Origin: Christensenella sp. UBA4636
GTDB taxonomy: Bacteria > Bacillota > Clostridia > Christensenellales > Borkfalkiaceae
DNA: 64,000 bases
Direction of reading: 5' to 3'
Assembly (NCBI GenBank): GCA_002405915.1
Contig: DHMS01000033.1
Span: 114,895 to 178,894, forward strand
Shown: positions 3,465 to 29,077 of the stretch, piece by piece
Numbering within the stretch: the stretch's first letter is position 1
How the letters are laid out: every line of letters starts with the position of its first letter
Made by a program: the position numbers and the translations under genes
Notes under the pieces: model-generated
What the model was told of the DNA's origin: nothing
What the model saw: only the letters and a program-made list of their open reading frames with translations
The model's database searches: none

Positions 3465-3567
3465 AAATCCGCAAGCGGATTTGTGGTGTTTGCCGTTGGC
3501 AAGTGGTGCTTCGCCTTGCGGCGAATGATGTTGCGACTTCGTCGCAGTGATGGTTGCCTATCGGCAA
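3465..3567. repeat. Array of five short GC-rich stem-loops separated by GTGGTG-like spacers
   Basis: The five hairpins are AAATCCG-CAAG-CGGATTT (3465-3482), TTGCC-GTT-GGCAA (3490-3502), TTCGCC-TTGC-GGCGAA (3510-3525), TGCGAC-TTC-GTCGCA (3531-3546) and TTGCC-TATC-GGCAA (3554-3567). The spacers are GTGGTGT, GTGGTGC, TGATG and GTGATGG. Confidence 0.5.
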
Positions 3568-3603
3568 GTTAAGGATAAAATTATTTATAAAATATAAAAA
3601 GTT

Positions 3604-5351: not shown

Positions 5352-7022
5352 TTATTTTTTGTTGCCGTAAACGCTTTGCGTTACGCCGTTTGCTTCTTTA
5401 AATTTTTTGAGGATTGACGAAGCGAAAACTTTTGCTTCGTTCCCGTCCGCATGCGGAACCGTGAATAACGTTGCCGGTTTGCCGTTGCCTTTTACCGCGG
5501 CTACGCCTAAGGGAGATTGGTCTACCGATTGCAAAACCGATTTATCTTCGACGTTTTTTTCGCCGCCGCAAAATCCGTAATTTAGGCAACCTTTTAAGCA
5601 TATGCTTACGACTTCTCTGCCGCAAGAACGTAACATTCTTGCAAATTCGCCATTATAATCCGCGTCGCTGCTTAACGCGAAAGAAATGCCTAACGGTTTT
5701 GATACCCTCAAAAATTCGCAAAATCTTTCAATCGTCGGATTGTAAAGCCAAAGGATATCTTTTAATAGCGCAAAATTTTTCAACAAATCGTCCAAAACGA
5801 AGAAAGTTACGGGTAAAGGTTCATTTGCGGTCGCATTGTATTTTGCGATATCGGAAACGCCGCTTACCGCAAAAAGCCTTTTTCGCCTTTCGATTTCGTC
5901 TTCTATATGCGACAAAAATTCGATTAGTCCGTTGCCCCTTTCCGCATACATTATTCCCGTGACTTGCGGAACGTAAAGCGAAGATTTGCTTTCGTCAAAG
6001 CACAAAAAGTCGTCGCAATTGTCCGCGGTATCGCCGATAAAAAAGTTGACCTTTTTAGGAGAATAAACGGCGGAAGCAGACAAAACAAGCGATTTTAAGA
6101 AGTTAGTTTTGCCCGTGCCTGCACTCCCTCGAACGATAATGAGCGGAGCGTTTTCCGCACTAACCGTGACGGAATAGGTTTTTCCGTTAGCCTTAACGCC
6201 GAGCGGAAAGCAAAGCTTATCGCCGCCTTTTCGGCTATCTTCCTTTTCGAAAGTTTCAAGCGTTTTCAATAAAGAAAGCTCTTTTGCGGCTACGCTTACA
6301 CTGCTTTTCGGTTCTGTGCAAACGGGGCGCGGGTCCTTGGCGGGTAGAATAGTCGGTTTGTGTACTTCTTTCGTTTCGGGTGCTTTTTTAGTTTGCTTTT
6401 CGCCCTTTTTCTGTTCTTCTTCCTCGTAGGAAGCGAGCATTGCGTCAAGGTCGTCGTCTGTGAATTCTTCAAATTCGTCGACGGGTTTTACGTCCTCGGG
6501 CGGATTGGAAACGGTCGGTTTAGCGGGAGATGACAAAAAGTCTTGCAAACTCTTTTTTGTTTCTTCATCAAGGTCGTCGGGAATTTCCAAAGAGTCAGAT
6601 TCGAGCATGGCGAAAAACGCGTCGCGGGTTTTTGCGCTCTGTTCGCGTTCGGCTTTTTCGCTTTCTCTACGCTTTTTCCGCTCTTCCTCTTTTTTCCACG
6701 CTTCTATTTTTTTGCCGTCTTCGAGCATTTTTTTGTCGAATTCTTCAAAGGCGCGTTCGAGGTCGAGTTCCTCTTTGGCTTTCGGGTCGGTTTTTGCATG
6801 TTCTTCAAGGTCCGCGCGTTTTCTCTTTTCCGCTTCGTCCTTTTCGTCAAGCTCTTTTAAAAACTTACGCCATTCGGCTTCGTCTCGCTTAGACTTCTTT
6901 TTCGGCGGATTTTTTGCAAGTCCATCCGCTGTCTCAGCGGCTTTTTTTGAAGAACCGCCCATTACGCTGTCAAACGAAATATCTGAAATACCCGAAAAAA
7001 TATCGTCTTTTTTACCGCTCAT
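5352..7022 (-). CDS. FtsK/SpoIIIE-like single-P-loop ATPase with ~230-aa K/E-rich disordered N-terminus
   Basis: 556-aa ORF. It has a Walker A (IIVRGSAGTGKTNFLKSLV) and a Walker-B-like motif (PVTFFVLDDLL). The N-terminal third is low-complexity K/E/D-rich, and no TM segment is visible. Its start is 3 nt after the stop of the 1146-aa ATPase. Confidence 0.65.
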   Translation of the reverse strand: MSGKKDDIFSGISDISFDSVMGGSSKKAAETADGLAKNPPKKKSKRDEAEWRKFLKELDEKDEAEKRKRADLEEHAKTDPKAKEELDLERAFEEFDKKMLEDGKKIEAWKKEEERKKRRESEKAEREQSAKTRDAFFAMLESDSLEIPDDLDEETKKSLQDFLSSPAKPTVSNPPEDVKPVDEFEEFTDDDLDAMLASYEEEEQKKGEKQTKKAPETKEVHKPTILPAKDPRPVCTEPKSSVSVAAKELSLLKTLETFEKEDSRKGGDKLCFPLGVKANGKTYSVTVSAENAPLIIVRGSAGTGKTNFLKSLVLSASAVYSPKKVNFFIGDTADNCDDFLCFDESKSSLYVPQVTGIMYAERGNGLIEFLSHIEDEIERRKRLFAVSGVSDIAKYNATANEPLPVTFFVLDDLLKNFALLKDILWLYNPTIERFCEFLRVSKPLGISFALSSDADYNGEFARMLRSCGREVVSICLKGCLNYGFCGGEKNVEDKSVLQSVDQSPLGVAAVKGNGKPATLFTVPHADGNEAKVFASSILKKFKEANGVTQSVYGNKK

Positions 7023-7024
7023 GT

Positions 7025-10000
7025 TTAGCCTCTCTTAGCCTTTAAAGCTTTCCACCATTCGGCGTTGTTTTCTATCGAATAATCGAAGAGCCTCGTGCGA
7101 GTACTGCTCAGATTGTCGTAAACGCAAGTTTCGTCCACTCGCGCGCCCTCTATCGACTTATTTTCCGTTATAGCTTTCAAAACGTCGTAGGAATCGTAAA
7201 TATAACGCTGGGATGAGCGAGCGTTTTCACCTCCGCCGCATACCGCCTTTAACTGCGAAAGTTTTTCATGGGCTAATATAACGAAAACACAATAACCGCT
7301 GCCGTTTTCGTACAAATCGGAAACGATTGCTTTAAGGTCGGAAACATAATATGTTTTGTTGTCTTCGACGGGCTTTTCTGCCTTAGGCTGTATTGTCGAA
7401 CCGCCCGCACGAACGCGTGAAAGCATCGCAAGCGCGCCGCCTTTAAGCGAAACTCCGCTATCCGCAAGCTCCTTTTCGGTTGCCGACGTATCGACGGGTT
7501 TTGCGGGCGTATCCGCCGATTTGTTTGCGGCGGAAGTTGTTTTTTTGCCGCCTATCGCGCCGCTTGAAAGAAGCCATTCAACGTCGTGAATAACGAGGTA
7601 TACGGGCTTAAATTGCGCCTTATTGTCTAAGCTCTTTTCTTCGCGACGTTTTTCCAAAAGTTCTTTAAGCCTTGTAAGTTCGCGCGCGATTTTAAGGTGT
7701 TCTTTATCGTCGCATACGTTGACGAATTTAGAAACGAAGTCTTTCTCGCGCCCGAAGCCGTCGATAAATTCCTTACCGTCGGCGGGACCCGCGGCGTAAA
7801 TAAATTCGCCGTCGTTAAACTTTTCTATATACGAAAGCGTAAACGAACGTTCAAGTTCGAAAAGCTTGCTTTCTCGCGCAAGCGCGCAATAGCCCGAGGC
7901 GTTTCTGTCCTCGGCAAAGCTCAGCGATACGCCTATCGTATTCGAAGCCGACGCGCCTATCGGCAAATAGTATTTGCCCTCTTTATAAGCTACCGCTTTA
8001 TAGTCGGAAATCGGGAATAAATCGTCGTTGCCGGCTTCCGCCTGAACTATCTTGCAAGCAGGGTTATTTTTATACTTTTCGCGTATTCTTTCGGCAACGT
8101 CTTTCATGTCCCGCGAAGTGGTTTCGCCTGCGTAAGCAACTTTAACAAGGTTAGTTATATCACCGTTGTTACTTCCTATCGATATGAGAGCCGTGCCTAT
8201 TTTTTTAAGCTTTTCCGAATATTCTCCGGCTTTTATGGAATTGAGCTTGAAATAAGAGTTGAATACCGACGGATTGTTTACTTTTAAAGACAGTTTTGAG
8301 CCTATCTGTTCCGTTGCTCCGCACCCGATTAACGGGTCGGCGGTCTGTCCGCAGAAAAGTATTTCTATGCCGTAGCTTCTCGCTCTTTTCAGAACGGAAT
8401 CAAGCTTATTGCCGAGCTTGCTTATAGTCGCAAAGTTCGCCCCGGAACCGAACATGTTGTTGTACTCGTCGATTATAAAGAGCGCAATCGGGAGCTTTTT
8501 ATACTTGCCGGACAAAACCGCTTGGCTTTTGTTGAACGCTCGGATATCCGAACAGCCCGATTTACTCTCCGACATTATTTTTGCGCGTTCGTCTATCATA
8601 AAATCCATTTTATTGAGCAAGTCCATCGCGCTCTCTTCTCTGCAACGAAGAGAAAGATAAACGACATGCGGCAAATACATAGGGTTACCCTTTTTGTAGT
8701 TTGCAAAAGCGGGAGACGTTTCGCCGCTCTTGAAGTCGACGAGGTACATTTGCAACTCGTCGGGCGCGTAATTGTATGCCGCGGACATTATAAACGTGTG
8801 CAAAAACGCCGATTTACCCGACCCCGTCATACCGACCAAAAGCCCGAAAACATTAGTGGAGCAAGTCTTTAAAACGTAATCGTAACGAACGCCCGAAGAA
8901 ATACCGAGAGGAATTCGCAATGCGTCGTTATAATCTTCGACGGGCTTCAACGCAAAATCCTTGTCCGACATTTCAAGCAGCTTTTTTAGCGAAAGTGAAT
9001 CCGAAGCTTTGTTTTCCTTGGAAAGATAGTCGAGGTAATCGTTTATTTTGAAATTTTCAGCCATTATATCTACGGAAACAGGCTCGCCGTTATATAAAAC
9101 GCCGTCCTCCGTAACATCGATAACATCGCAAGAGATTTTTTTGCCCTTATCGTCTTCGAGCTTAAAATCGCTGTTCTTGTCGATACAGATCAGCGAAAGC
9201 ACGCCCTTGGCGGGTCCCGTTTCCAAGACATTTAAAAAAGTCTTTTTCTGTTCGGAGGTAAAGCGTTCGCCGAAACAGTCGGGCGCATAGTTATATGCAG
9301 CTAAAACGAAATCATGCTTGGCGTCGGGAGTGTTGTCATTATATTCGTAAATGTTCGCATAGTCGTTACCCTTATATGTTTTGGAACGACCGCGGATAAG
9401 GGTTATCAAGGCTTCGTTAAAAGAAATCGTTCCGGACGAGCTTGAAGCGATGTCCTTATCGAAAATATAATTTTCGCCAAGCTTTGCTTTAACTCTGTCG
9501 GCAACCGCGCCGATAACCGCCTCCACAGCCGTTTCCGCGCCTCCTAAGCGCAGGTTTTTGAGACCTAACGAGGAGAGAAGAGAAAGGTAAATTTTGCGAA
9601 TCAGGTCGAAAGCGTCGCCGCCATCCGCTTCGAAATAATCCCTGTCGGCACGTATAACGATAACCCCGTTTCTTGTTTTGGGTTTGAAGAATACGGGAAC
9701 GCCGGATAGTGCTTTTTCGGGAACGCCGAGCGTTTTGACGGCAAAATCTAACGCTTCTTTATTTATATCCGATTTTTTAAAGCCGATAAGGAAGCGGTAG
9801 TCCGTTTCTTCGTCCGATAAGGGCTTGCCGATAAGCATAGTGCTTGCCTTTTCGTTGTCGGTGAGAATTTGAGTTTTTAAAGCTTCTAATTCCTTATAGC
9901 AGGAGAGGTTTTCAAGCTTTGTGTTCTTTTTGAAGTTAATTTCTAAGTCGGCTTTCTTTTTGTCGACTTCCGCCAAAGCTTCTTCGCGCTTTCTTTCTTC

Positions 10001-10465
10001 ATAGCCCGTTTCGGATAAAAGACGGCGCGCAGACATAACGACGTAGCGTAAGTCGGTCAAGCACTGACAAAAGCGTTTTTGCGGCGCGATATCGTCCTCT
10101 ACCGTTTTGCTTTCGTCAACCGCCATGATAGCGGCTCTCCCCTCCTCGACGAGCCTGTCGACGTATTCGAACACGCCGCCCTTAGGTACGGGGCGGGGAG
10201 AAAGACGTTTTATGTACTCTCCGACGGTAAACGTAACGCCCTTGGTGCGGCGTTGAACGCTATCCCAGTCGGCGAAAATTTCTTCGAGGGCGGAAAGCGA
10301 AACGCGGTAAGTGTCGACGTATTCTTTCACATAGTCGGTCGCTTTAATCTCCTTTTCCTCATCGGCAAGCTTTTTCATCGCCGCGTCGAATTTGTCTTGT
10401 TTTTTCTTGATTTCGGAAGCGTAAACTAAATGCAAACGCTCCGTTTCTCTTATTATATCGGACAT
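7025..10465 (-). CDS. EssC/EccC-like multi-domain FtsK/SpoIIIE-family ATPase, apparently soluble
   Basis: 1146-aa ORF. There is one canonical P-loop (NVFGLLVGMTGSGKSAFLHTFIMSAAYNYAPDELQMYLVDFKSGE) with a Walker B (LPIALFIIDEYNNMF). It is flanked by degenerate domains: the AAYNYAPDCFGERF duplicate upstream, and KPVYLVIHDVEWLL downstream. I see no hydrophobic TM stretch and no FHA-like N-terminus. Confidence 0.75.
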   Translation of the reverse strand: MSDIIRETERLHLVYASEIKKKQDKFDAAMKKLADEEKEIKATDYVKEYVDTYRVSLSALEEIFADWDSVQRRTKGVTFTVGEYIKRLSPRPVPKGGVFEYVDRLVEEGRAAIMAVDESKTVEDDIAPQKRFCQCLTDLRYVVMSARRLLSETGYEERKREEALAEVDKKKADLEINFKKNTKLENLSCYKELEALKTQILTDNEKASTMLIGKPLSDEETDYRFLIGFKKSDINKEALDFAVKTLGVPEKALSGVPVFFKPKTRNGVIVIRADRDYFEADGGDAFDLIRKIYLSLLSSLGLKNLRLGGAETAVEAVIGAVADRVKAKLGENYIFDKDIASSSSGTISFNEALITLIRGRSKTYKGNDYANIYEYNDNTPDAKHDFVLAAYNYAPDCFGERFTSEQKKTFLNVLETGPAKGVLSLICIDKNSDFKLEDDKGKKISCDVIDVTEDGVLYNGEPVSVDIMAENFKINDYLDYLSKENKASDSLSLKKLLEMSDKDFALKPVEDYNDALRIPLGISSGVRYDYVLKTCSTNVFGLLVGMTGSGKSAFLHTFIMSAAYNYAPDELQMYLVDFKSGETSPAFANYKKGNPMYLPHVVYLSLRCREESAMDLLNKMDFMIDERAKIMSESKSGCSDIRAFNKSQAVLSGKYKKLPIALFIIDEYNNMFGSGANFATISKLGNKLDSVLKRARSYGIEILFCGQTADPLIGCGATEQIGSKLSLKVNNPSVFNSYFKLNSIKAGEYSEKLKKIGTALISIGSNNGDITNLVKVAYAGETTSRDMKDVAERIREKYKNNPACKIVQAEAGNDDLFPISDYKAVAYKEGKYYLPIGASASNTIGVSLSFAEDRNASGYCALARESKLFELERSFTLSYIEKFNDGEFIYAAGPADGKEFIDGFGREKDFVSKFVNVCDDKEHLKIARELTRLKELLEKRREEKSLDNKAQFKPVYLVIHDVEWLLSSGAIGGKKTTSAANKSADTPAKPVDTSATEKELADSGVSLKGGALAMLSRVRAGGSTIQPKAEKPVEDNKTYYVSDLKAIVSDLYENGSGYCVFVILAHEKLSQLKAVCGGGENARSSQRYIYDSYDVLKAITENKSIEGARVDETCVYDNLSSTRTRLFDYSIENNAEWWKALKAKRG

Positions 10466-10480
10466 AAGTTCACCGTAAAA

Positions 10481-12898
10481 TTATTTTAGTATCGAAATAA
10501 GTTGTTTTGCCGCTCTTAAAATTTCAGTAGCTTCCGTATACGCTTTTACATGAACAATCGATTGATAGATACCGACCGCGAAAGCGACGACCAAGAAGAT
10601 TGCGCCTATAACAGCCACGGGAGCGGTTATACCGTCGTCGATATCGTTAATAACGAAACAGGCGGCTATCAACATAAGTACCGCGTTGATAAGCGCGGCG
10701 GCGTTCAAGAACACCATGTACCCCGGGAAGTTTACACTCCCGACAATTCCCATAACGCCGAAGCCTAAAACAATTATGATATGCAAAAAAACAAGTATAA
10801 CGCTATCGCTTCCTTCGACGTTGTAGTTTTCGAATTTGTGTATGCAAACGAGAACGAAATGCGGAACGAATGCGACAAGGCACGGGAAGCCTATAACCAT
10901 TCCGCGAGTCCAACCCGCTTCAAAAAAGCCTAAACCGACGGCAATCGCCGTTACGACGACCGAAACGCCGAGCATAAGCGAAGAACTGCAAACAGTTTCC
11001 TCCTCGGAGAAAATCGCGCCGAAAAGATATGCTGAGAACGCAGCCGCGCCGAAAGCGACGGCAAGATACGCGTATTCGCCGCCTAAAGCCGAAAAAATAA
11101 TCGAAGCGATGATTAAAAACGGGTTGACGGCATGCAAAACCGCCAAAACGGCAACGTTTTTGCCGCCGTTGCCTACTTTACATTCGAACAAAAACCACAT
11201 TACGCCGTAAGCGACAACGCAAGCCGCGCTCACGAGCGGCAAACGGAGATTAGGCACGAATACCGAAACGCCTATCGCGATAACAAGCAACAGTACGGCG
11301 GCAAGTATCGGCAAGGTTACGGGCAAACGCTTTTTGCGATTGTAAGCTTTTATACGTTTTATTTCCGCTTGTCTTTGTTTTCTCGCCTCGCGGGCTTCCT
11401 TTTCTTCGCGCTCTTTCTTCATTTTTTCTATAGCTTTGTCGTTAATATCGCAAGCTTCTTTATAAGCCGCTTCCAACGCGCTTATTTTATTTTCGGAAAT
11501 AAGCTTCTTTTCGGCGGAAGTAAGGCTATGATAAACGCGCATTACGTCCGTAGTTTTACCGTTTTTGTCTGCTTTAAACGCCGGCAAAACCTCGTCGATT
11601 TTCGCTTCTTTTTCGGCGGCGGATTGTTTTACCGCCTCTTGATTTTTGATATAACGCTCCGCTTCGGTTTTTAAGCTTTTAACCTTATCCTTATCTAAGT
11701 ACGGCAAAACGCGCGCGGGAACGGAAGCGAAAAAGCTTTCCGCTTCATAATATTTTGCGTGTCTGTTTTGACAAGAAGTTATAAACGCGTCTAACTTTTT
11801 ATTGTAATCGATAATTTCCTTTTGAAGTTTTTCTTCGGCTGCCTTTTTCTCTGCGGCTTGGCGGCGAAGTTCTTTTTGTCTGTCCTCTTCCGCCTTAATG
11901 CCGTCCTTAGCGATTTTCAAAAGCTTATTGAGCTTTTGCGACTCTTTAAGATACGGGCGGACGGAATCGGTTATCGTCTTTTCGAACTTCAAAACGGCGT
12001 TATAATCGGCGTTGCCGCGTTCGAAGTCGTCCGAAAAAGCAAGGATTTTTTCGTCGATCGTGTAAGCTAAGGAAACCTTTTTGGCAATAACGGCAAGCTC
12101 GTCGAGAACGGCGAGATTTTTGCACCTCGAACGAATTTTAAGTTCAAGATTTTTTACGAGATTTTGGGCGTTTTTAACGTCCTCGCACCAATAAACGCCT
12201 TTGGGAGCTTTGCTCAAATCGAAGATAAGCTTGTCGATATCCGCGGCGGAATCGGCAATACGCTTTTCTTCCTTTTCTTTCGCGGCACGCTCCGCTTCCG
12301 CCTTTTTTATGGCGGCTAAGCGTTCTTCTTCCGCTTTTTTAGCGGCGGCTTGGCGTTTGGCTTCTTCCTCGGCGGCTTTCTTTGCGGCGGCTTTGTCCGC
12401 GATATCTTTTTCGATGATTTTTACGGCTTCCGCCTTTATTACGTTAATTTTCGTAGCGTTTTTAATAGATTTTATAATATCGGCGTTTTGTTTTTCTTCC
12501 TTTTCTACAACCTTTAAAGCGCGCTCCGCCCACGCAACCGAACGGGGTTCTTTATCTAACGCCGCTATGCGTTCGTCAAGCTCGTCAATGCGCTTTTTTA
12601 ACGCCGCTTCGTCGTCTTGCTTCTTTTTTTCGATTATGTAATTTGCCTTTTCTTTGATTTCTTTAAGGCGCGAAGCGTTGAGAGATAGGTCGAAAATATC
12701 GGAATTGAGCCGCGTTTCCTCTTCTACGAAAGGAAGAGCCGCTTTTGCCCATTCGATATCTTGTTTTCTCTTTAAAAATTCCGCGACGCGCGCGTCAAGC
12801 TGTTCGGCTCGTTCTCTTTTCGTCGCCTCGTCGCCGACCTTTTTGTACTTTGCGGGATCGCCGGAATTAAGCCCGCCGAATAAGTTGTTGCCTGCCAT
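10481..12898 (-). CDS. Large membrane protein: N-terminal repeated helical modules plus a C-terminal ~10-TM domain; first gene of the WXG100 operon
   Basis: The ORF track gives 10481..13006. I prefer ATG 12898 (MAGNNLFGG...), which has GAGGAG 12 nt upstream, because ATG 13006 has no SD. The C-terminal ~280 aa are a run of hydrophobic helices (LPILAAVLLLVIAIGVSVFV ... AVIGAIFLVVAFAVGIY). Confidence 0.6.
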   Translation of the reverse strand: MAGNNLFGGLNSGDPAKYKKVGDEATKRERAEQLDARVAEFLKRKQDIEWAKAALPFVEEETRLNSDIFDLSLNASRLKEIKEKANYIIEKKKQDDEAALKKRIDELDERIAALDKEPRSVAWAERALKVVEKEEKQNADIIKSIKNATKINVIKAEAVKIIEKDIADKAAAKKAAEEEAKRQAAAKKAEEERLAAIKKAEAERAAKEKEEKRIADSAADIDKLIFDLSKAPKGVYWCEDVKNAQNLVKNLELKIRSRCKNLAVLDELAVIAKKVSLAYTIDEKILAFSDDFERGNADYNAVLKFEKTITDSVRPYLKESQKLNKLLKIAKDGIKAEEDRQKELRRQAAEKKAAEEKLQKEIIDYNKKLDAFITSCQNRHAKYYEAESFFASVPARVLPYLDKDKVKSLKTEAERYIKNQEAVKQSAAEKEAKIDEVLPAFKADKNGKTTDVMRVYHSLTSAEKKLISENKISALEAAYKEACDINDKAIEKMKKEREEKEAREARKQRQAEIKRIKAYNRKKRLPVTLPILAAVLLLVIAIGVSVFVPNLRLPLVSAACVVAYGVMWFLFECKVGNGGKNVAVLAVLHAVNPFLIIASIIFSALGGEYAYLAVAFGAAAFSAYLFGAIFSEEETVCSSSLMLGVSVVVTAIAVGLGFFEAGWTRGMVIGFPCLVAFVPHFVLVCIHKFENYNVEGSDSVILVFLHIIIVLGFGVMGIVGSVNFPGYMVFLNAAALINAVLMLIAACFVINDIDDGITAPVAVIGAIFLVVAFAVGIYQSIVHVKAYTEATEILRAAKQLISILK

Positions 12899-13021
12899 GT
12901 TTTTGCTTTGCTCCTCGAATATAATATTCTTGATTTGTCGTTTGTAGTTACGCGCGCCGAAAACGGAGAAAGTTTTTCCTACGTTATATTCGCACGCAAA
13001 ACGCATTGTTTTTATTATATA

Positions 13022-13165: not shown

Positions 13166-14704
13166 TTACTTTTTGAAAAGCTTTCTCACGAATGCGGGAA
13201 GTCCGCCTTTTTTCTGCTCTTCTCTGGGCTGCTCCTCTTGCGGCTGCGCGCCGTAAGGATAGCCGTCGTCATAAGAATGGTCGTCGTAACCTCTTCTCGC
13301 TCTGTCGTCAGGTTGTCTATAATCGTCCCTGCCGTATTCGCCGTAAGCGTTGCGCGCCGCGCCGGTAGTTACAACGCGTTCGTCGCCGTAAGGTCTGCGC
13401 GGTTGTTCTCTATCGTACTGCGGTCTTTCGGCGTAATCCTCGTCGCGCTTACCGTAAGGTCTTGCGGCGTACGGGTCCCTCGCGTAGCCGTCGCGCTTTT
13501 GGTCGTACGCGGACTGCTCGGGAGAAGCGTAGCGGGAACGCGGAGCTTCCTCCTCTTCGCCGTAACCTCTTGCATAAGGGGTCTGGGTCTGCTGCGGACG
13601 AGCGGTATCTCTTTCATAAGGAGAACGAACGTAAGACGGCTTAGCTTCTTCTTGCGGTTCTTCAACCTTTTTTTCGGGTTCGGGACGAGCCGAGAAAAGG
13701 TTCTTGTACGCTCTCGAAGCGTCGGATGAAGAATCGTCGGAACTTCTGTCGAAGCCGGTCGCTATCATCGTGATGATGACTTCTTCCTGCAAAGCTTCGT
13801 TTATGTTCATGCCGAAAATAATGTTTGCGGACGGGTCGACGATGCCTTTAATGCTGTGCGCCGCTTCGTCAACTTGTTTGAGCGTTAAGTCTTTGCCGCC
13901 CGTGACGTTCAAAATAACGCCCTTTGCGCCCTCGATGGTTGTTTCAAGGAGCGGCGAAGAAATGGCTTCTCTTACCGCTTCGAGTATTCTGTTTTCGCCC
14001 TTGGCTCTACCCACGCCCATGTGCGCAAGACCCTGGTTTTTGATTATCGCGGAAACGTCGGCAAAGTCAAGGTTGATAAGCGACGGGGTGGCGATAAGGT
14101 CGGCAATGCCGCAAATGCCCTGGCGGAGCGTGTCGTCCGCGTATTTTAACGCTTCAATCATTGGCGTGTCGGGTTTTAACGCTTCGAGAAGTTTGTCGTT
14201 CGGGATAATAATCATCGTATCGACGTACTTTTCAAGGTTGGCGATACCCTTTTTGGCGTTGATTTCGCGCTTGCCGCCTTCGAACATGAACGGCTTGGTG
14301 ACGACAGCAACCGTTACGCAACCTTTTTCTTTTGCGACTTTGGCAATGACGGGGGAAGCGCCCGTGCCGGTGCCGCCGCCCATACCCGCGGCGATAAACA
14401 AAAGGTCTACGCCGTCGACTATCTGTTCGATAAGTTCTCTGCTTTCTTCGGCGGCTTTTTCGCCGATTTCCGGGTTTGCGCCCGCGCCTAAGCCCTTGGT
14501 TTCTTCCGCGCCTATCTGGTAGCGGTTTTCGGGCGGGCATTTTGAAAGCATGAGCGCCTGCTTGTCCGTGTTGATAGCTACGAATTCGGCGGTGTGTACG
14601 CCTTGGTCTATCATTCTGTTGACGGCGTTGTTGCCCGCGCCGCCTACGCCGATTACCATAATTTTGGCAACCGACGACGCTTGATCGTATTCTTCGTTAA
14701 ACAT
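13166..14704 (-). CDS. ftsZ: Cell-division GTPase FtsZ (512-aa product from the internal SD/ATG) with a long R/Y/D/P-rich C-terminal linker
   Basis: The minus strand reads AGGAGGAAATATATG at 14704. The product begins [31 protein letters not shown], carries the GGGTGTG tubulin signature ([14 protein letters not shown]) and ends with an FtsA-binding-type peptide, [13 protein letters not shown]. Confidence 0.92.
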
Positions 14705-16948
14705 ATATTTCCTCCTGACGGATTGCTTTTTTTGTTGCTCTTTATAGAGTCTTTCTTCTTCGGTTTCCGATTCTTCGGGAATTTCTTCTCGGGTTTCTTC
14801 TTTTTCCTCGTACGGCGTTGTAGCTTGTTGCGTTTGCGCCTGCGTTTGCTCGAATTTTATCGTTTGCGGCTCTTCCTCTTGAATTGTCTGCGGCACCGCT
14901 TTGATTGCTTGTTCTGCCGTCTGCTCCGCAGTTTGATCTTCGAAAGGCTCTTGCGGCTGCACGGGTTGCGGCTCTTCCGTCGCCGTTTGTTGCGGCGGTT
15001 CGGGTTGCGGTTCTTCTATTTGAATTTCGGGTTCCGCTTGCGCTTCGACTTCTTCAATTGTTTGTTCCGCTTGCGGTTCGTCAAAGACCGTTAAAAACTC
15101 GTCCTCGTCCGACTGCTTTTCGGTTGTTTCCGAAATAACGTCGTCGAAAATGCTTTTCGCTTCCTCTTCGTCGTCAACTTGTTCCGTCTGCTCGGTTACC
15201 TCATCTATCGGCGCAACCTCTTCGGGTTCGGCTTCTATAATAGGCTCCGTAACGGGTTCCGCTTGTTCGACGGATTCAACTTTTTCATCGACGGGTTCGG
15301 GAATTATTTTTTCTACCGTCGCGGTTTCGGGTTCAACTTCGGTCGTTTCTTTAATTTCGGTCGCCGTTACCTCTTCCGTTTGAGTTTCAACTTCTGTAGG
15401 GCTTTCTTCAACGGTTTCCGCTTGCGGTTCATCCTCTTCCGCCTTTGCGGGAGTCGTGAAAAAGTCGCTTATTTCGCCCGAATTTTCCGTTTCTGCCGCG
15501 CCGAACAAAGCTTCTTCGAAAGAAATTTGTCCTTTAACGGGCGCAAATTCGTCCTCTTCGTCGGCTGTTTCTTCGGCTTGTTCGCTTTCCGCGGTTTCTT
15601 GCGCCGTTTCTTCAATCTCCGTTGCTTCTTCGGCTTGTTCTACCTTTTCGACTTCATCTTCGATTTTTTCTATTTCTAAGGTAGATTGTTCCACCTCTTC
15701 GATAGTTTCTTCTTCGACGGGCTTTTCTTCCGCTGTTTCGGGTTCGTTTACCTCGGGTTCTTCGGCAACTTCCGTTTCGTCCTCAGAGACTTCTTCGTCG
15801 GAAGCTAAGTCGGAGGCTAAGTCGGGCGGGAGCGCGCATGTTGCGTCGGCTATTCGCTCGACTTCTTCAATCGTTTTGATTTCTTCGTCCTCGGCTTCCT
15901 TTATAGGCTCGTCCGCCTTTTCTATGGCTGCGGCGGGACTTTCCGAAACGGTTAAGTTGCCCGACGAATATTCTTCTTCGTTAGTCGCTTCGATTTGTAT
16001 TCCTTGCGGCTCGGCTTCTTCAAGCTCTTTGGGTTCTTCTGAAAGTTCTTCCGTTTCGACCTCTTCTGTTTCCTCTTCGGTTTCGGTTTGTTCTTCTACC
16101 TCTTCGCCGTCGATTTTTTCAGCCGTTTCTTCGTCGATATTTTCTTCGGCTTCGTCGGCTGCTTCGTCGATTTCGGGTTCGCCGTCTTTTTCGGTTTCTT
16201 CTATCTCGTCGGAAATTTCAAGTTTTTCCTCTTCGACGGGCAAATCTTCTGCGGGTTCTTCTTCCGCTTCTTCTTGCTCGTCCGAAACTTCCGCTTCTGC
16301 GGGTTCTTCAACTTCTTCGGGTTCGGTTTCTTCCGCCGTTTTCTCGATAGTCGCGGTTTCTTCCGCCGTTTCGGCTTTCAAATCTTCTTCTAAGTCCGGT
16401 TCGAAGTTAACGCTTTCTTTCCATTTTTCAAAGGTTTTTTCTTCCTCTTCCGTTTCCTCTTCCGTTTCGTCGTCATCTATTGGCACGTAAGAGCTTAAAA
16501 AATCCTCGTCCGGTTCGAAGTCCACCTTGGAGCGGTCGAAAACGAAAGGCTTTTTTTCTTCGGCTTCGCCGATTTCGGGTTCGCCGTCTTTTTCGGTTTC
16601 TTCTATCTCGTCGGAAATTTCAAGTCTTTCCTCTTCTTCGGGCAAGTCCTCTTCGATTTCTTCCGCCGTTTCTTCGTCGGTTACATCTTCGGAAGTTTTT
16701 TCCGTTTCTTTCGCGGCTTCATCGTCCAAAGTTTCTTCAACCTCTTCGGGAGCGGTTGTAAGTTCTTTTTCGGTTTCTACCTCTGCGGGCGTTTCTACTT
16801 TTACTTCTTCCGTTTCGGCTTCCTCGGAGAATTTGCCCGTTTGCTCGTTTATTTCGAAAAACGTTACGGGAATAGGCTTAGGAGTAACGGAAAATCCTCC
16901 GCCCCGCGTTTTTATTTTATTTTTTTTCTTCTTTTTTTCTTTGTACAT
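14705..16948 (-). CDS. In-frame, stop-free upstream extension of ftsZ: 748 codons of hyper-acidic low-complexity sequence (would give a 1260-aa FtsZ isoform)
   Basis: The ORF track shows one uninterrupted frame, 13166..16981. The most plausible start is ATG 16948 ([18 protein letters not shown]), with GGGAGG 5 nt upstream and 59 nt after the ftsA stop. Composition is dominated by E, T, P, A, D and Q. Confidence 0.5.
16169..16636 (-). repeat. Two ~66-nt near-identical in-frame direct repeats inside the acidic extension
   Basis: Copies at 16169-16235 and 16571-16636, 402 nt apart (134 codons). Both encode [18 protein letters not shown]. Confidence 0.85.
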
Positions 16949-17007
16949 TTTTACCTCCCTATTTTTTATTTGCTCGCTCAAAACTTAAAGCGGTATATGC
17001 GTTTTTA

Positions 17008-18129
17008 TTATTCGCTCAAATTAAGCGCGTAGTTTAAAAGAGCTAATTTAGAGCTGTCGTCGGGCTTTGCCATATAGGCTATCGGCGGGCAGATTACGTT
17101 GACGGGCATTTCTATATATTCGCTGAGCCGCTCTTTGCCGCCGCGTATATAAGATATTCCGCCGCCCGTTAAGGTCACCGCCATGTTGTGCGGCAATTTT
17201 ACGCGGCTTTCCGCCATAGCCTTGTCCACTTGTTCGGCAATGTCGCCGATGACGTTACGAGCAATGTCGTTACAATCCTTTTGCGGAAAAGATAAAATTT
17301 CTTCGCCCCAGGTTATTTCGTACGCGCCCTCGGCGACTTCGGGCACCGACAAATTGAGCCGCCGCTTTATTCTTTCGGCAAGTTCGAAGCTTACGTTCAG
17401 CCTTTCGTAAAGGTAAGCCGTAATGTGTCCGCCGCCTATCGGGAAGGACTTATGATACAAAAGCCCGCCGCCGTAGCAGATTGAGAACGTAGATGTAGTG
17501 TAGCCGACGTCGAGCAGAAGAACGTACGAAAACCGCTCCGACGGGGAGAAAAGAAACAAACTTTCCGCAATCGCAACAGGCACGAACGTTATCTTTTTTA
17601 CGCCGAACGACGAAAACGCGCTTCTTATCGTATCAAGAAAACCTTTTTCGGCAAGAAAGAAGGTAACGTAACCGTTGACGGAAGATGTGGTTTCCTTTAA
17701 CAAACTTTCGACCCGTCTTTCGCCGTCGAGATAGTACATAACGCCGCGGCGGTCTATGACCTCGTAGCCGTTTCTCGCCACCGTGCCGCCCGCTTCCGTT
17801 AAAAATTCGTCCACGTCTTTGGCGCGCAATCTTTTGCGGCGGTTGTAGTAAGTGCGTTGTTGTCTGTTTTCCGTTATCGTGAAATCGCCGGGAACGCCGA
17901 CGAAAATTTCGTCTATTCTGGCTTTCGCCGTTTCCGCGACCGACTTATAAGCCGAGCGCAACGCAAAAACGAGGCTTTGGGGATTATCGAGCGCGCCGTC
18001 GTAAAAACCTTCGTGAGAAACTTCGGAAATCGCTCGTATTATGAAATTTTTATTAACGCCGTTTTCGCCTATCAAGCCCGTGACTTTGGACGAGCCTATA
18101 TCGAAAACCGCGACCGCGTCTTTAAGCAT
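17008..18129 (-). CDS. ftsA: Cell-division protein FtsA
   Basis: ORF 17008..18168. I prefer ATG 18129 (MLKDAVAVFDIGSSKVTGLIGE), which has AAGGAGAG 6 nt upstream and overlaps the ftsQ stop. It has an actin-like ATPase fold pattern and sits between ftsQ and ftsZ. Confidence 0.9.
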   Translation of the reverse strand: MLKDAVAVFDIGSSKVTGLIGENGVNKNFIIRAISEVSHEGFYDGALDNPQSLVFALRSAYKSVAETAKARIDEIFVGVPGDFTITENRQQRTYYNRRKRLRAKDVDEFLTEAGGTVARNGYEVIDRRGVMYYLDGERRVESLLKETTSSVNGYVTFFLAEKGFLDTIRSAFSSFGVKKITFVPVAIAESLFLFSPSERFSYVLLLDVGYTTSTFSICYGGGLLYHKSFPIGGGHITAYLYERLNVSFELAERIKRRLNLSVPEVAEGAYEITWGEEILSFPQKDCNDIARNVIGDIAEQVDKAMAESRVKLPHNMAVTLTGGGISYIRGGKERLSEYIEMPVNVICPPIAYMAKPDDSSKLALLNYALNLSE

Positions 18130-28144: not shown

Positions 28145-29077
28145 TTAAAGTTTTTCAATAACCCTTAGTTTCGCGCTTTTGGAGCGGGGGTTGTCCGCCC
28201 TCTCCTTTTCTGTGGCTACGAGAGGCTTTCTCGTAACTTCCTTGACGATTTCCTTTCTGCCGCAAACGCAAATCGGCAAACTTTTGTCGCAAGTACAGCC
28301 GGTTGAAAGGTCTTTGAAAACGTTCTTTACTATTCTGTCCTCTAAGGAGTGGAAGGTAATAACGGCTAATCTTCCGCCCTTAGCGAGCCTTAACGCCATT
28401 TCTCTCAAAACCGCGTCGAGTCCTTCAAGCTCTCCGTTTACTTCGATACGAATTGCCTGAAAGGTTCTTTTTGCCGGATGACCGTCCCGTTGAAATTTTT
28501 TCGGTATACTTTGTTCGATAATTTTTACAAGCTCGCCGCAAGTTTTTACGGGTGAAATTTCACGCGATTTTACTATGTTTTCGGCGATTTTTTTCGAAAA
28601 TCTCTCTTCTCCGTATTTATCTATTACTTCCGCGAGAGCTTTCTCGGAATAGGTATTGACGACGTCGTAAGCCGAAAAGGATTGTTCCTCGTTCATGCGC
28701 ATGTCGAGCTTTTCGTCGACCGCCATGTAGGAAAAACCCCTTTCGCGCATATCGAGCTGCATGCTCGATACGCCGAGGTCTACGAGTATTCCGTCGAACT
28801 TATCTATATTAAGCTCGTCCGCTACAATCGAAAAATTTTTAAAATTATCATGAACCGCGGTAAACCGCTTTCCGTATGAAAAAAACTTTGTCAAAGCGTT
28901 GTTTACGGCAAGCGTATCGAGGTCGGTTGATATAAGTTTTGAATCCTCCGCGCGCTTCAATATTTCGCCGCTGTGTCCGCCCGCTCCCAAAGTTGCGTCG
29001 AAGTAAACGCCGCCCTTTTTGAGATTCAAGTTTTCCATGCACTCTTCAAGCATGACGGGAACGTGCTTAATTTCCAT
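28145..29077 (-). CDS. rsmH: 16S rRNA (cytosine1402-N4)-methyltransferase RsmH/MraW
   Basis: 310 aa beginning HVPVMLEECMENL, with DATLGAGGHS and the FHSLEDRIVK motif. It directly follows mraZ. Confidence 0.95.
   Translation of the reverse strand: MEIKHVPVMLEECMENLNLKKGGVYFDATLGAGGHSGEILKRAEDSKLISTDLDTLAVNNALTKFFSYGKRFTAVHDNFKNFSIVADELNIDKFDGILVDLGVSSMQLDMRERGFSYMAVDEKLDMRMNEEQSFSAYDVVNTYSEKALAEVIDKYGEERFSKKIAENIVKSREISPVKTCGELVKIIEQSIPKKFQRDGHPAKRTFQAIRIEVNGELEGLDAVLREMALRLAKGGRLAVITFHSLEDRIVKNVFKDLSTGCTCDKSLPICVCGRKEIVKEVTRKPLVATEKERADNPRSKSAKLRVIEKL

Follow-up and report, generated by a model that had tools for sequence, protein, structure and literature searches.

Canonical FtsZ consists of a short N-terminal peptide, a core, a C-terminal linker and a C-terminal peptide, an arrangement that is held to be nearly universal. 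The linker is reportedly a disordered spacer, and that of Caulobacter is said to be 172 amino acids (aa) long. Two proteins may arise from one open reading frame (ORF) by in-frame internal initiation, as in ClpB (95 and 80 kDa), IF2 (alpha and beta) and CheA (long and short), and charged disordered projections are found in neurofilaments (the NF-M and NF-H side-arms), in MAP2 and tau (projection domains) and in tubulins (acidic C-terminal tails). FtsZ's N-terminal peptide has been described as having 'a few to ca. 200 aa' (PMC6175996). In Anabaena it has about 50–60 aa, is required for normal polymerisation and has been proposed to set lateral spacing; mis-annotation of start codons in FtsZ has been reported as well (PMC6175996). 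The Anabaena-type peptide is the only experimental precedent, much smaller, for the gene described here, an ftsZ located in a 64,000-nucleotide (nt) stretch of Christensenella sp. UBA4636 (contig DHMS01000033.1; the whole stretch is hereafter termed the window), in which the canonical core is preceded by 748 codons. In the full-text literature searched, no description of a giant acidic N-terminal FtsZ was found. The locus is read here as a genuine giant ftsZ (product of 141 kDa) of uncultured gut Clostridia, with a candidate internal start and an extension proposed to act as a charged brush; as a whole, this reading is given a probability of roughly 0.7.

The minus-strand frame 13166..16981 contains no stops. 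Read from a TTG at 16981, which has no Shine-Dalgarno sequence (SD; +0.1 kcal/mol), it comprises 1271 codons, and from the ATG at 16948 it specifies 1260 aa. This ATG lies 59 nt past the ftsA stop codon (17008–17010) and is preceded by GGGAGG (16959–16954), which forms a duplex of –12.2 kcal/mol with the 16S tail, has a mean unpaired probability of 0.75 and is conserved in a related locus (L001). From there the frame runs through 748 codons without a stop to a second ATG, at 14704, which has its own AGGAGG (14716–14711) at a 6-nt spacing. The original prediction had reported the two starts, their SD sequences and the open frame between them, and all were recovered. The elements of the gene are as follows:

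13166..16948, minus strand: long ftsZ ORF (1260 aa, 141 kDa, isoelectric point 4.07), identified by TIGR00065 and at least 38 long homologues
16954..16959, minus strand: SD of the long form, GGGAGG, 5 nt before ATG 16948
14711..14716, minus strand: internal SD, AGGAGG, read as codons Arg-Arg, 6 nt before ATG 14704
13736..14704, minus strand: FtsZ globular core, aa 749–1071, beginning at the ancestral Met 749, with GVGGAG, the G-box GGGTGTG and the T7 loop NLDFAD
13214..13735, minus strand: C-terminal linker of ~175 aa, with a predicted local distance difference test (pLDDT) score <50 in the AlphaFold2 (AF2) model of relative P0027, and a ratio of nonsynonymous to synonymous substitution rates (dN/dS) of 0.11–0.15
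13169..13213, minus strand: C-terminal peptide, putative docking site for FtsA/SepF-type partners, LP[AS]FV[RKQ][RK]LF in long and short relatives

The C-terminal 512 aa make up a complete FtsZ. Pfam returned Tubulin (PF00091; 6.6e-49, aa 762–923) and FtsZ_C (PF12327; 5.5e-32, aa 973–1067), the NCBIfam ftsZ equivalog TIGR00065 scored 410.3 bits against a cut-off of 295.2, and the G-box and T7 loop were located at aa 857 and aa 959, respectively. The AF2 model, which is that of a full-length 1090-aa relative (P0027) and not of the window protein, places a helix at residues 1082–1087, matching the C-terminal peptide. At the sequence level, every hallmark of an FtsZ was found save the short N-terminus (748 aa here, ~540–700 aa in relatives). 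A long N-terminus is no ground for exclusion, and on these criteria the gene product is classed as FtsZ, in a new architectural variant.

When the whole protein was used in a word-indexed search, 38 FtsZ of 942–1186 aa were returned, all with extra N-terminal sequence. The long homologues, at least 38 and from independent assemblies, fall into clades A, B and C, with locus L018 as a further lineage; their extensions, of ~540–750 aa, are all in frame with FtsZ across three or four divergent lineages. Clade A comprises 30 clusters (90% identity) from different samples, with extensions of 586–682 aa and a common N-terminal start. Clade B begins MYKPRFTGKKKKSSKVKHK and has extensions of 543–606 aa, and clade C begins MAKQNYQIKSKNNKKSIFSRRRSG, with extensions of ~645–690 aa. 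The three clades show the same gene order, murD-ftsW-murA-ftsQ-like-ftsA-long ftsZ, and the succession of ftsA, a 59-nt spacer, SD and ATG is likewise kept. Scanning genome contigs with the window protein yielded two species representatives, and scanning metagenome contigs one relevant locus, which is incomplete (L012). Genuinely short ftsZ genes were found in L019, L020 and L021, where 63–118 nt separate ftsA from a canonical ftsZ and no gene lies between them.

A homologue search with the core only listed two further FtsZ, of 505 aa and 418 aa, at 99% and 78% identity. These were rejected as short counter-examples, since scaffold gaps of 100 N lie within their extensions (L017, 2262–2361; L018, 3334–3433 and 4523–4622). 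In both loci an ORF beginning MYK... opens right after ftsA, enters the gap and, on the far side, continues to FtsZ in a frame that is arbitrary; as a result of such gaps, gene callers report an FtsZ of normal length from the internal Met, with 1.5–2.3 kb left 'empty' after ftsA. Both short FtsZ are thus artefacts of annotation, and L018 is itself a further long-FtsZ lineage.

Over the extension the ftsZ frame contains no stops, against 30–34 in the other sense frames and 6–22 in the antisense frames. Among 1000 shuffles that preserved dinucleotides, none left fewer than 5 stops in even the most stop-poor of the six frames, and the longest open stretch was of 464 codons versus the 748 observed. 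It had been cautioned at the outset that GAA-rich DNA is poor in stops, as illustrated by antisense ORFs of 344 and 153 aa. These do exist (15456–16490 and 16527–16988, plus strand; Ser-rich), but the same antisense frames hold 5–12 stops in relatives, which marks them as shadow ORFs of the GAA-rich coding strand. When the orthologous ftsA–ftsZ regions were compared, as the original prediction had proposed, the indels were mostly multiples of three and the frame link to ftsZ was preserved: in unguided DNA alignments, 27/29, 21/23 and 9/9 gap runs (57/61 in total) were multiples of three, and the four exceptional runs summed pairwise to multiples of three. The dN/dS values (Nei-Gojobori) were ~0.2–0.3 for the extension, 0.17–0.23 for its conserved islands, ~0.02 for the core and 0.11–0.15 for the C-terminal linker, those of the spacers between islands being unreliable because of saturation and alignment uncertainty. 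Amino acid identity was 77% in the islands versus 41–50% in the spacers. Conserved islands among hypervariable spacers are typical of a disordered, translated region bearing short linear motifs, and not of an untranslated leader. The 1260-aa fusion suggested originally is real as a coding sequence, and the extension is very probably translated as part of FtsZ.

The extension amounts to 748 aa, of which 237 are Glu (32%); D+E account for 38% and K+R for 7%, giving a net charge of –228. As had been noticed earlier, it begins basic and then turns acidic, and the aromatic/hydrophobic islands listed at that time were all found in it. In clade A the islands occupy residues 1–40, 128–185, 325–372, 464–501, 597–627 and 714–748, and the spacers are acidic, hypervariable and rich in indels. 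The pair of in-frame repeats 402 nt apart was also present, and proved longer than the ~66 nt first described: each copy has 113 nt, the two being 89% identical and differing at a single position over their final ~64 nt. This repeat, specific to the window, shows the region to grow by in-frame duplication. These features are:

16829..16948, minus strand: polybasic tip (+9 over the initial 25 aa) with the first conserved island; conservation of at least 90% across 31 clade-A sequences
16563..16675, minus strand: repeat copy 1, 113 nt, in frame, 89% identical to copy 2
16394..16567, minus strand: two conserved islands, aa 128–185; AF2 helix over the FEKWKE part at low-to-moderate confidence (pLDDT ~60)
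16161..16273, minus strand: repeat copy 2, 113 nt, in frame, 402 nt (134 codons) from copy 1
15833..15976, minus strand: island EEYSSGNLT..., aa 325–372, conserved in clade A; helix with pLDDT ~85 (P0027 model)
15446..15559, minus strand: two islands, aa 464–501, conserved in clade A
15068..15160, minus strand: islands including KSIFDDV, aa 597–627, conserved in clade A
14705..14809, minus strand: junction segment, aa 714–748, conserved, predicted helical, holding the internal ribosome-binding site

In the P0027 model the extension has pLDDT <50 except for two or three helices. The only confident one inside the extension is EPIKEA...ERIADA (pLDDT ~85); the junction helix also escapes the low values, and the FEKWKE helix is weaker. 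Neither Pfam nor NCBIfam held a family matching the extension. A phmmer search of the 748-aa extension against 1.84 billion representatives recovered only clade-A long FtsZ and fragments, plus one unrelated Thr/Glu-rich low-complexity repeat protein. On the comparative evidence, the extension is an intrinsically disordered polyanionic chain bearing one or two helices and about ten short peptide motifs that are conserved.

In all clades the first 25 residues carry +8/+9 and the net charge thereafter is –130 to –230, and what is conserved across clades is the physical character of the extension, not its sequence. BLAST of clade-A against clade-B and clade-C extensions gave no significant similarity past the MYK/polybasic start; resemblances of clade A to VYLDEDGQT and to YERSQFNYEEDTDY of the other two clades were considered and set aside as not significant by BLAST. 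Clades B and C and L018 share a motif, [STA]VYL[DN]E[DEN]G.T, found as SVYLDEDGQT, TVYLNEEGET and AVYLDENGDT (P0032, aa 335–344; P0037, aa 210–219; L018, about 3500–3570). They also share E/K/R/Q-rich helical repeats (EEQRRQAEL, ~12 times), a coiled-coil-like or single-alpha-helix-like module that clade A lacks; otherwise their extensions cannot be aligned with those of clade A.

The internal site is of interest because of its origin. In the genuinely short relatives, the sites directly after ftsA read GGAGGAAATTTA-ATG-TTT (L019), GGAGGATAATTAA-ATG-TTC (L020) and AAGGAGATAATT-ATG-TTT (L021), and the internal site of the window reads AGGAGGAAATAT-ATG-TTT. This match identifies the internal SD and ATG as the retained ancestral ribosome-binding site of ftsZ, which within the long ORF now reads Arg-Arg-Lys-Tyr-Met. 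It is unchanged across 8 clade-A DNAs, and AGG, which makes up 13% of Arg codons here, is yet used twice at the SD. Its duplex energy (–10.5 kcal/mol) exceeds the medians of annotated starts (–8.2) and of in-frame internal ATGs (–2.9), and ranks it among the top 1.5% of the 137 in-frame internal ATGs; its unpaired probability is 0.65 versus 0.52 for real starts and 0.42 for internal ATGs (top 1.6%). Scans for promoters and terminators gave a single weak promoter-like site (9/12), at 15084–15057 on the minus strand within the extension, and no terminator between ftsA and ftsZ, an outcome of little information; Rfam had no matches in the window. Co-production of a 56-kDa, 512-aa FtsZ from ATG 14704 is, in our estimate, slightly favoured over its absence, in clade A only. 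As to the original suggestion that the internal SD can yield a 512-aa form, the site proved strong, accessible and ancestral and is not conserved in the sister clades; the form itself is plausible but unproven.

At the other start, homopolymer runs A7 (16932–16938) and A8 (16920–16927) lie within the first 10 codons and encode the poly-Lys tip; the A8 run is present in L001 as well. In other systems, ribosome sliding or transcriptional slippage is known to be favoured by A-runs and by AAA Lys codons in series. By analogy, these runs could attenuate expression of the long form.

The explanation proposed is that translation from the SD and ATG at 16948 yields the 1260-aa FtsZ, in which the extension is followed by the canonical core, the linker and the C-terminal docking peptide, and that a short form of 512 aa and 56 kDa, initiated at 14704, would co-polymerise with it. 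The C-terminal peptide of FtsZ points towards membrane tethers. Moving a membrane tag to the N-terminus reportedly inverts the rings, which implies that the N-terminus of FtsZ faces the cytoplasm. The extension might form a charged brush on the cytoplasmic face of the Z ring, opposite the membrane-directed C-terminus. A 748-residue chain with 30% net negative charge should behave as an expanded polyelectrolyte, with a reach of tens of nanometres by a rough polymer-scaling estimate, and chains grafted every ~4.4 nm along the protofilament would produce a dense anionic brush. Such a brush could oppose lateral bundling, repel nucleic acid and present the conserved motifs to partners as a docking scaffold. 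The polybasic tip may provide a second electrostatic anchor, to anionic membrane, to DNA or to neighbouring acidic chains. The ratio of long to short form would set the density of the brush, the short isoform diluting it. In its most ambitious version, the proposal is of a regulator built into FtsZ, i.e. a motif-studded brush of ~30–40 nm with a polybasic anchor that replaces the jobs of Zap/EzrA/Noc/SepF-type proteins and whose density is tuned by two isoforms; the jobs concerned (filament spacing, nucleoid exclusion and partner recruitment) are normally performed in trans, and in the clade of the window the fossil ftsZ ribosome-binding site would serve as a second start on one mRNA. This version is offered as a speculation that we consider doubtful.

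Several observations weigh against parts of this picture. Clades B and C keep the Met corresponding to the internal start, and their SD is gone (–2.6 and –3.3 kcal/mol, equal to background), so the short isoform is not required for an FtsZ of this kind. Since no other product of these clades has a recognisable ribosome-binding site, the long protein has to function as their FtsZ, barring a second ftsZ gene elsewhere. Near the internal SD there are ~8 synonymous sites, at which ~2 changes were expected and 0 seen, a difference that is not significant alone, and clade A is shallow (core 99% identical); the use of synonymous-site conservation as proof of RNA-level constraint was rejected as underpowered. 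SD-like motifs also occur inside other genes of the window. One 253-aa fragment (P0162) is identical to the clade-A extension over ~198 residues, after which it follows another frame of the GAA-rich DNA (…PKNPKTKKSPTRNPRTKR…) until a stop ends it. Either the assembly is in error here or the frameshift is genuine, in which case only the internal start could rescue FtsZ. The AF2 model of P0027 gave no sign of the extension docking onto the FtsZ core. Both isoforms are known here from the gene sequence alone, and composition and topology are the sole grounds on which the functions of brush, scaffold and anchor are proposed.

The alternative that best withstands the evidence is that only the long protein is made, the internal AGGAGG-ATG being a relic that codes for Arg-Arg-Lys-Tyr-Met in a conserved helix. 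It agrees with the sister clades, which kept the Met, lost the SD and evidently manage on the long form alone, and with a junction peptide that is conserved as protein and predicted to be helical; moreover, clade A is too shallow for synonymous statistics to reveal selection on the RNA. However, by local codon usage AGG-AGG is expected in ~2% of Arg-Arg pairs, and the site equals or surpasses bona fide starts in the strength and spacing of its SD, in its A-rich context and in accessibility, ranking in the top ~1.5% among internal ATGs; a ribosome-binding site of such quality inside an mRNA is normally used. We take the relic explanation to be unlikely, albeit one to be reckoned with, and retain the reading in which clade A has a candidate second start.

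The origin of the extension bears on a further alternative, that a separate novel acidic division gene once lay between ftsA and ftsZ and was fused to the latter by loss of a stop codon. An SD and ATG where ftsZ normally begins, and an ancestral ftsZ ribosome-binding site preserved at the junction, both speak for such an event. Against it, the phmmer search uncovered only clade-A long FtsZ and fragments, neither Pfam nor NCBIfam matches the extension, the 63–118 nt between ftsA and ftsZ in the three verified short relatives hold no gene, and no relative with a separate acidic ORF was found, the two apparent cases being the N-gap artefacts. The lack of a stand-alone homologue, together with the empty ftsA–ftsZ gap of the short relatives, points to an outgrowth of ftsZ rather than a captured gene, and fusion by stop-codon loss seems improbable. 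Of the 'fused novel division protein' of the original prediction, the in-frame fusion is real, and the independent protein finds no counterpart. The extension looks like a lineage-specific outgrowth of ftsZ that grows and shrinks by in-frame duplication and deletion. In a neighbour-joining tree of the core, which is not robust, the long clades group with one genuinely short lineage (P0064), implying that the extension was either gained once and then lost or gained more than once.

It is also conceivable that the 1260-aa product is a precursor whose extension is cleaved off or marks the protein for turnover, leaving a mature FtsZ of normal size. Long disordered N-terminal regions are accessible to proteases, and conservation extends to the junction segment. 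Neither a protease motif nor a partner emerged, however, and ~ten motifs, a polybasic tip and a net charge kept across clades are hard to explain for a pro-region that is discarded, so little credence is given to this possibility.

Even less probable is that only the canonical 512-aa FtsZ is made and that the upstream 2.2 kb are an untranslated, GAA-rich leader kept open by its composition. The strong SD at 14704, the low frequency of stops in GAA-rich DNA and the two antisense ORFs would fit such a leader; the shuffles that never reached zero stops, the indels in multiples of three, the frame link kept over ~540–750-aa extensions in at least 38 sequences, the peptide islands conserved at a dN/dS of ~0.2, the strong SD and ATG immediately after ftsA, the sister clades with no internal SD and the antisense ORFs that are not conserved would not. 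Finally, an artefact that removed a stop or shifted the frame at the junction can practically be dismissed: the repetitive extension does break assemblies (the 100-N gaps of L017 and L018, the frameshifted P0162), but the fusion occurs in three or four divergent lineages and the junction is identical in 8 independent assemblies from different samples, which excludes the assembly error at 14650–14760 for which re-sequencing had been suggested. The giant ftsZ with a candidate internal start is therefore the reading kept below.

The C-terminal linker of the window protein is of low complexity and of the 'sticker' type (R 14%, E 12%, Y 11%, D 11%, A 10%, P 10%), and that of clade C (P0037) is rich in Q/N/Y/G (QGYQGYQNQGYQNQGY), prion-like or FUS-like in look.

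The window contains a complete division and cell wall (dcw) gene cluster running from mraW (28145–29077) to ftsZ, in the order mraW-ftsL-PBP (penicillin-binding protein)-...-murD-ftsW-murA-ftsQ-ftsA-ftsZ. The gene next to ftsZ is:

17008..18129, minus strand: ftsA-like gene, 373 aa from the ATG used by relatives (Pfam FtsA, 1.1e-12)

Its product scored 92.5 bits with TIGR01174, below the cut-off of 175.85, aligns to residues 27–387 only of S. aureus FtsA and ends ...LLNYALNLSE; it appears to be devoid of the C-terminal linker and amphipathic membrane-targeting helix. FtsA is likewise atypical in L001, L002, L003 and L019–L021. As short-FtsZ relatives are among these, a tail-less FtsA characterises the wider group independently of the extension, which weakens the idea, considered at one point, that the polybasic tip replaces the missing membrane helix of FtsA.

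Directly downstream of ftsZ lies a gene for an 841-aa protein (10481–13006, minus strand) whose N-terminal half is rich in A/E/K and coiled-coil-like and whose C-terminal third has at least 5 hydrophobic segments; Pfam and NCBIfam gave no match. A counterpart of 709–804 aa follows ftsZ in all clade-A loci, but none does so in clades B and C, and the protein may be a division partner specific to the lineage. Downstream of this pair are two adjacent genes of the FtsK/SpoIIIE family, at 5352–7022 (556 aa) and 7025–10465 (1146 aa), both on the minus strand.

A conserved family of 105–141-kDa FtsZ proteins whose 'wrong' end bears a net charge of about –130 to –230 lies outside the accepted picture of FtsZ. 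The family amounts to a natural experiment in which a disordered polyelectrolyte has been attached to the subunit, and through which its effects on protofilament assembly, bundling, treadmilling and contact with the nucleoid could be studied; the retained ancestral ribosome-binding site gives a clean, testable example of a long isoform that arose upstream of an older start. The hosts are human-gut Clostridia known only from metagenomes, and long FtsZ are under-counted in databases, since the repetitive extension breaks short-read assemblies and N-gaps hide it.

Compared with the canonical FtsZ of B. subtilis and E. coli, the window protein has the same GTPase core, FtsZ_C domain, G-box, T7 loop, disordered linker, C-terminal peptide and gene position after ftsA. 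It differs in having 748 residues, with a net charge of –228, where the canonical protein has ~10–15 before the core, and in being ~2.5 times the normal mass. The N-terminal peptides of cyanobacterial and plastid FtsZ are similarly clade-specific, poorly conserved and added before the core, and mis-annotation of the start was met here too; in contrast to them, the present extension is 3–15 times longer, hyper-acidic with a polybasic tip, and has retained an internal ribosome-binding site. No sequence relationship links the two, phmmer having found no FtsZ match outside clade A. Like the FtsZ C-terminal linker, the extension evolves fast, is predicted to be disordered, accumulates in-frame indels and conserves length and composition over sequence, but it sits on the other side of the core, from where it projects away from the membrane tether, and is longer, more charged and equipped with motifs.

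With the ClpB, IF2 and CheA pairs the locus shares a single ORF, a second in-frame SD and start, and a truncated form that would be able to co-assemble. Here, however, the internal site is the ancestral one and the long form the novelty, the site is absent from the sister clades, and the isoforms are known from genes only. The likeness to the eukaryotic projection domains is an analogy of mechanism only, without homology: in both cases an entropic and electrostatic brush that sets filament spacing and offers docking sites may be at work, with the difference that the putative brush described here is part of the tubulin-homologue subunit itself, and is placed at its N-terminus.

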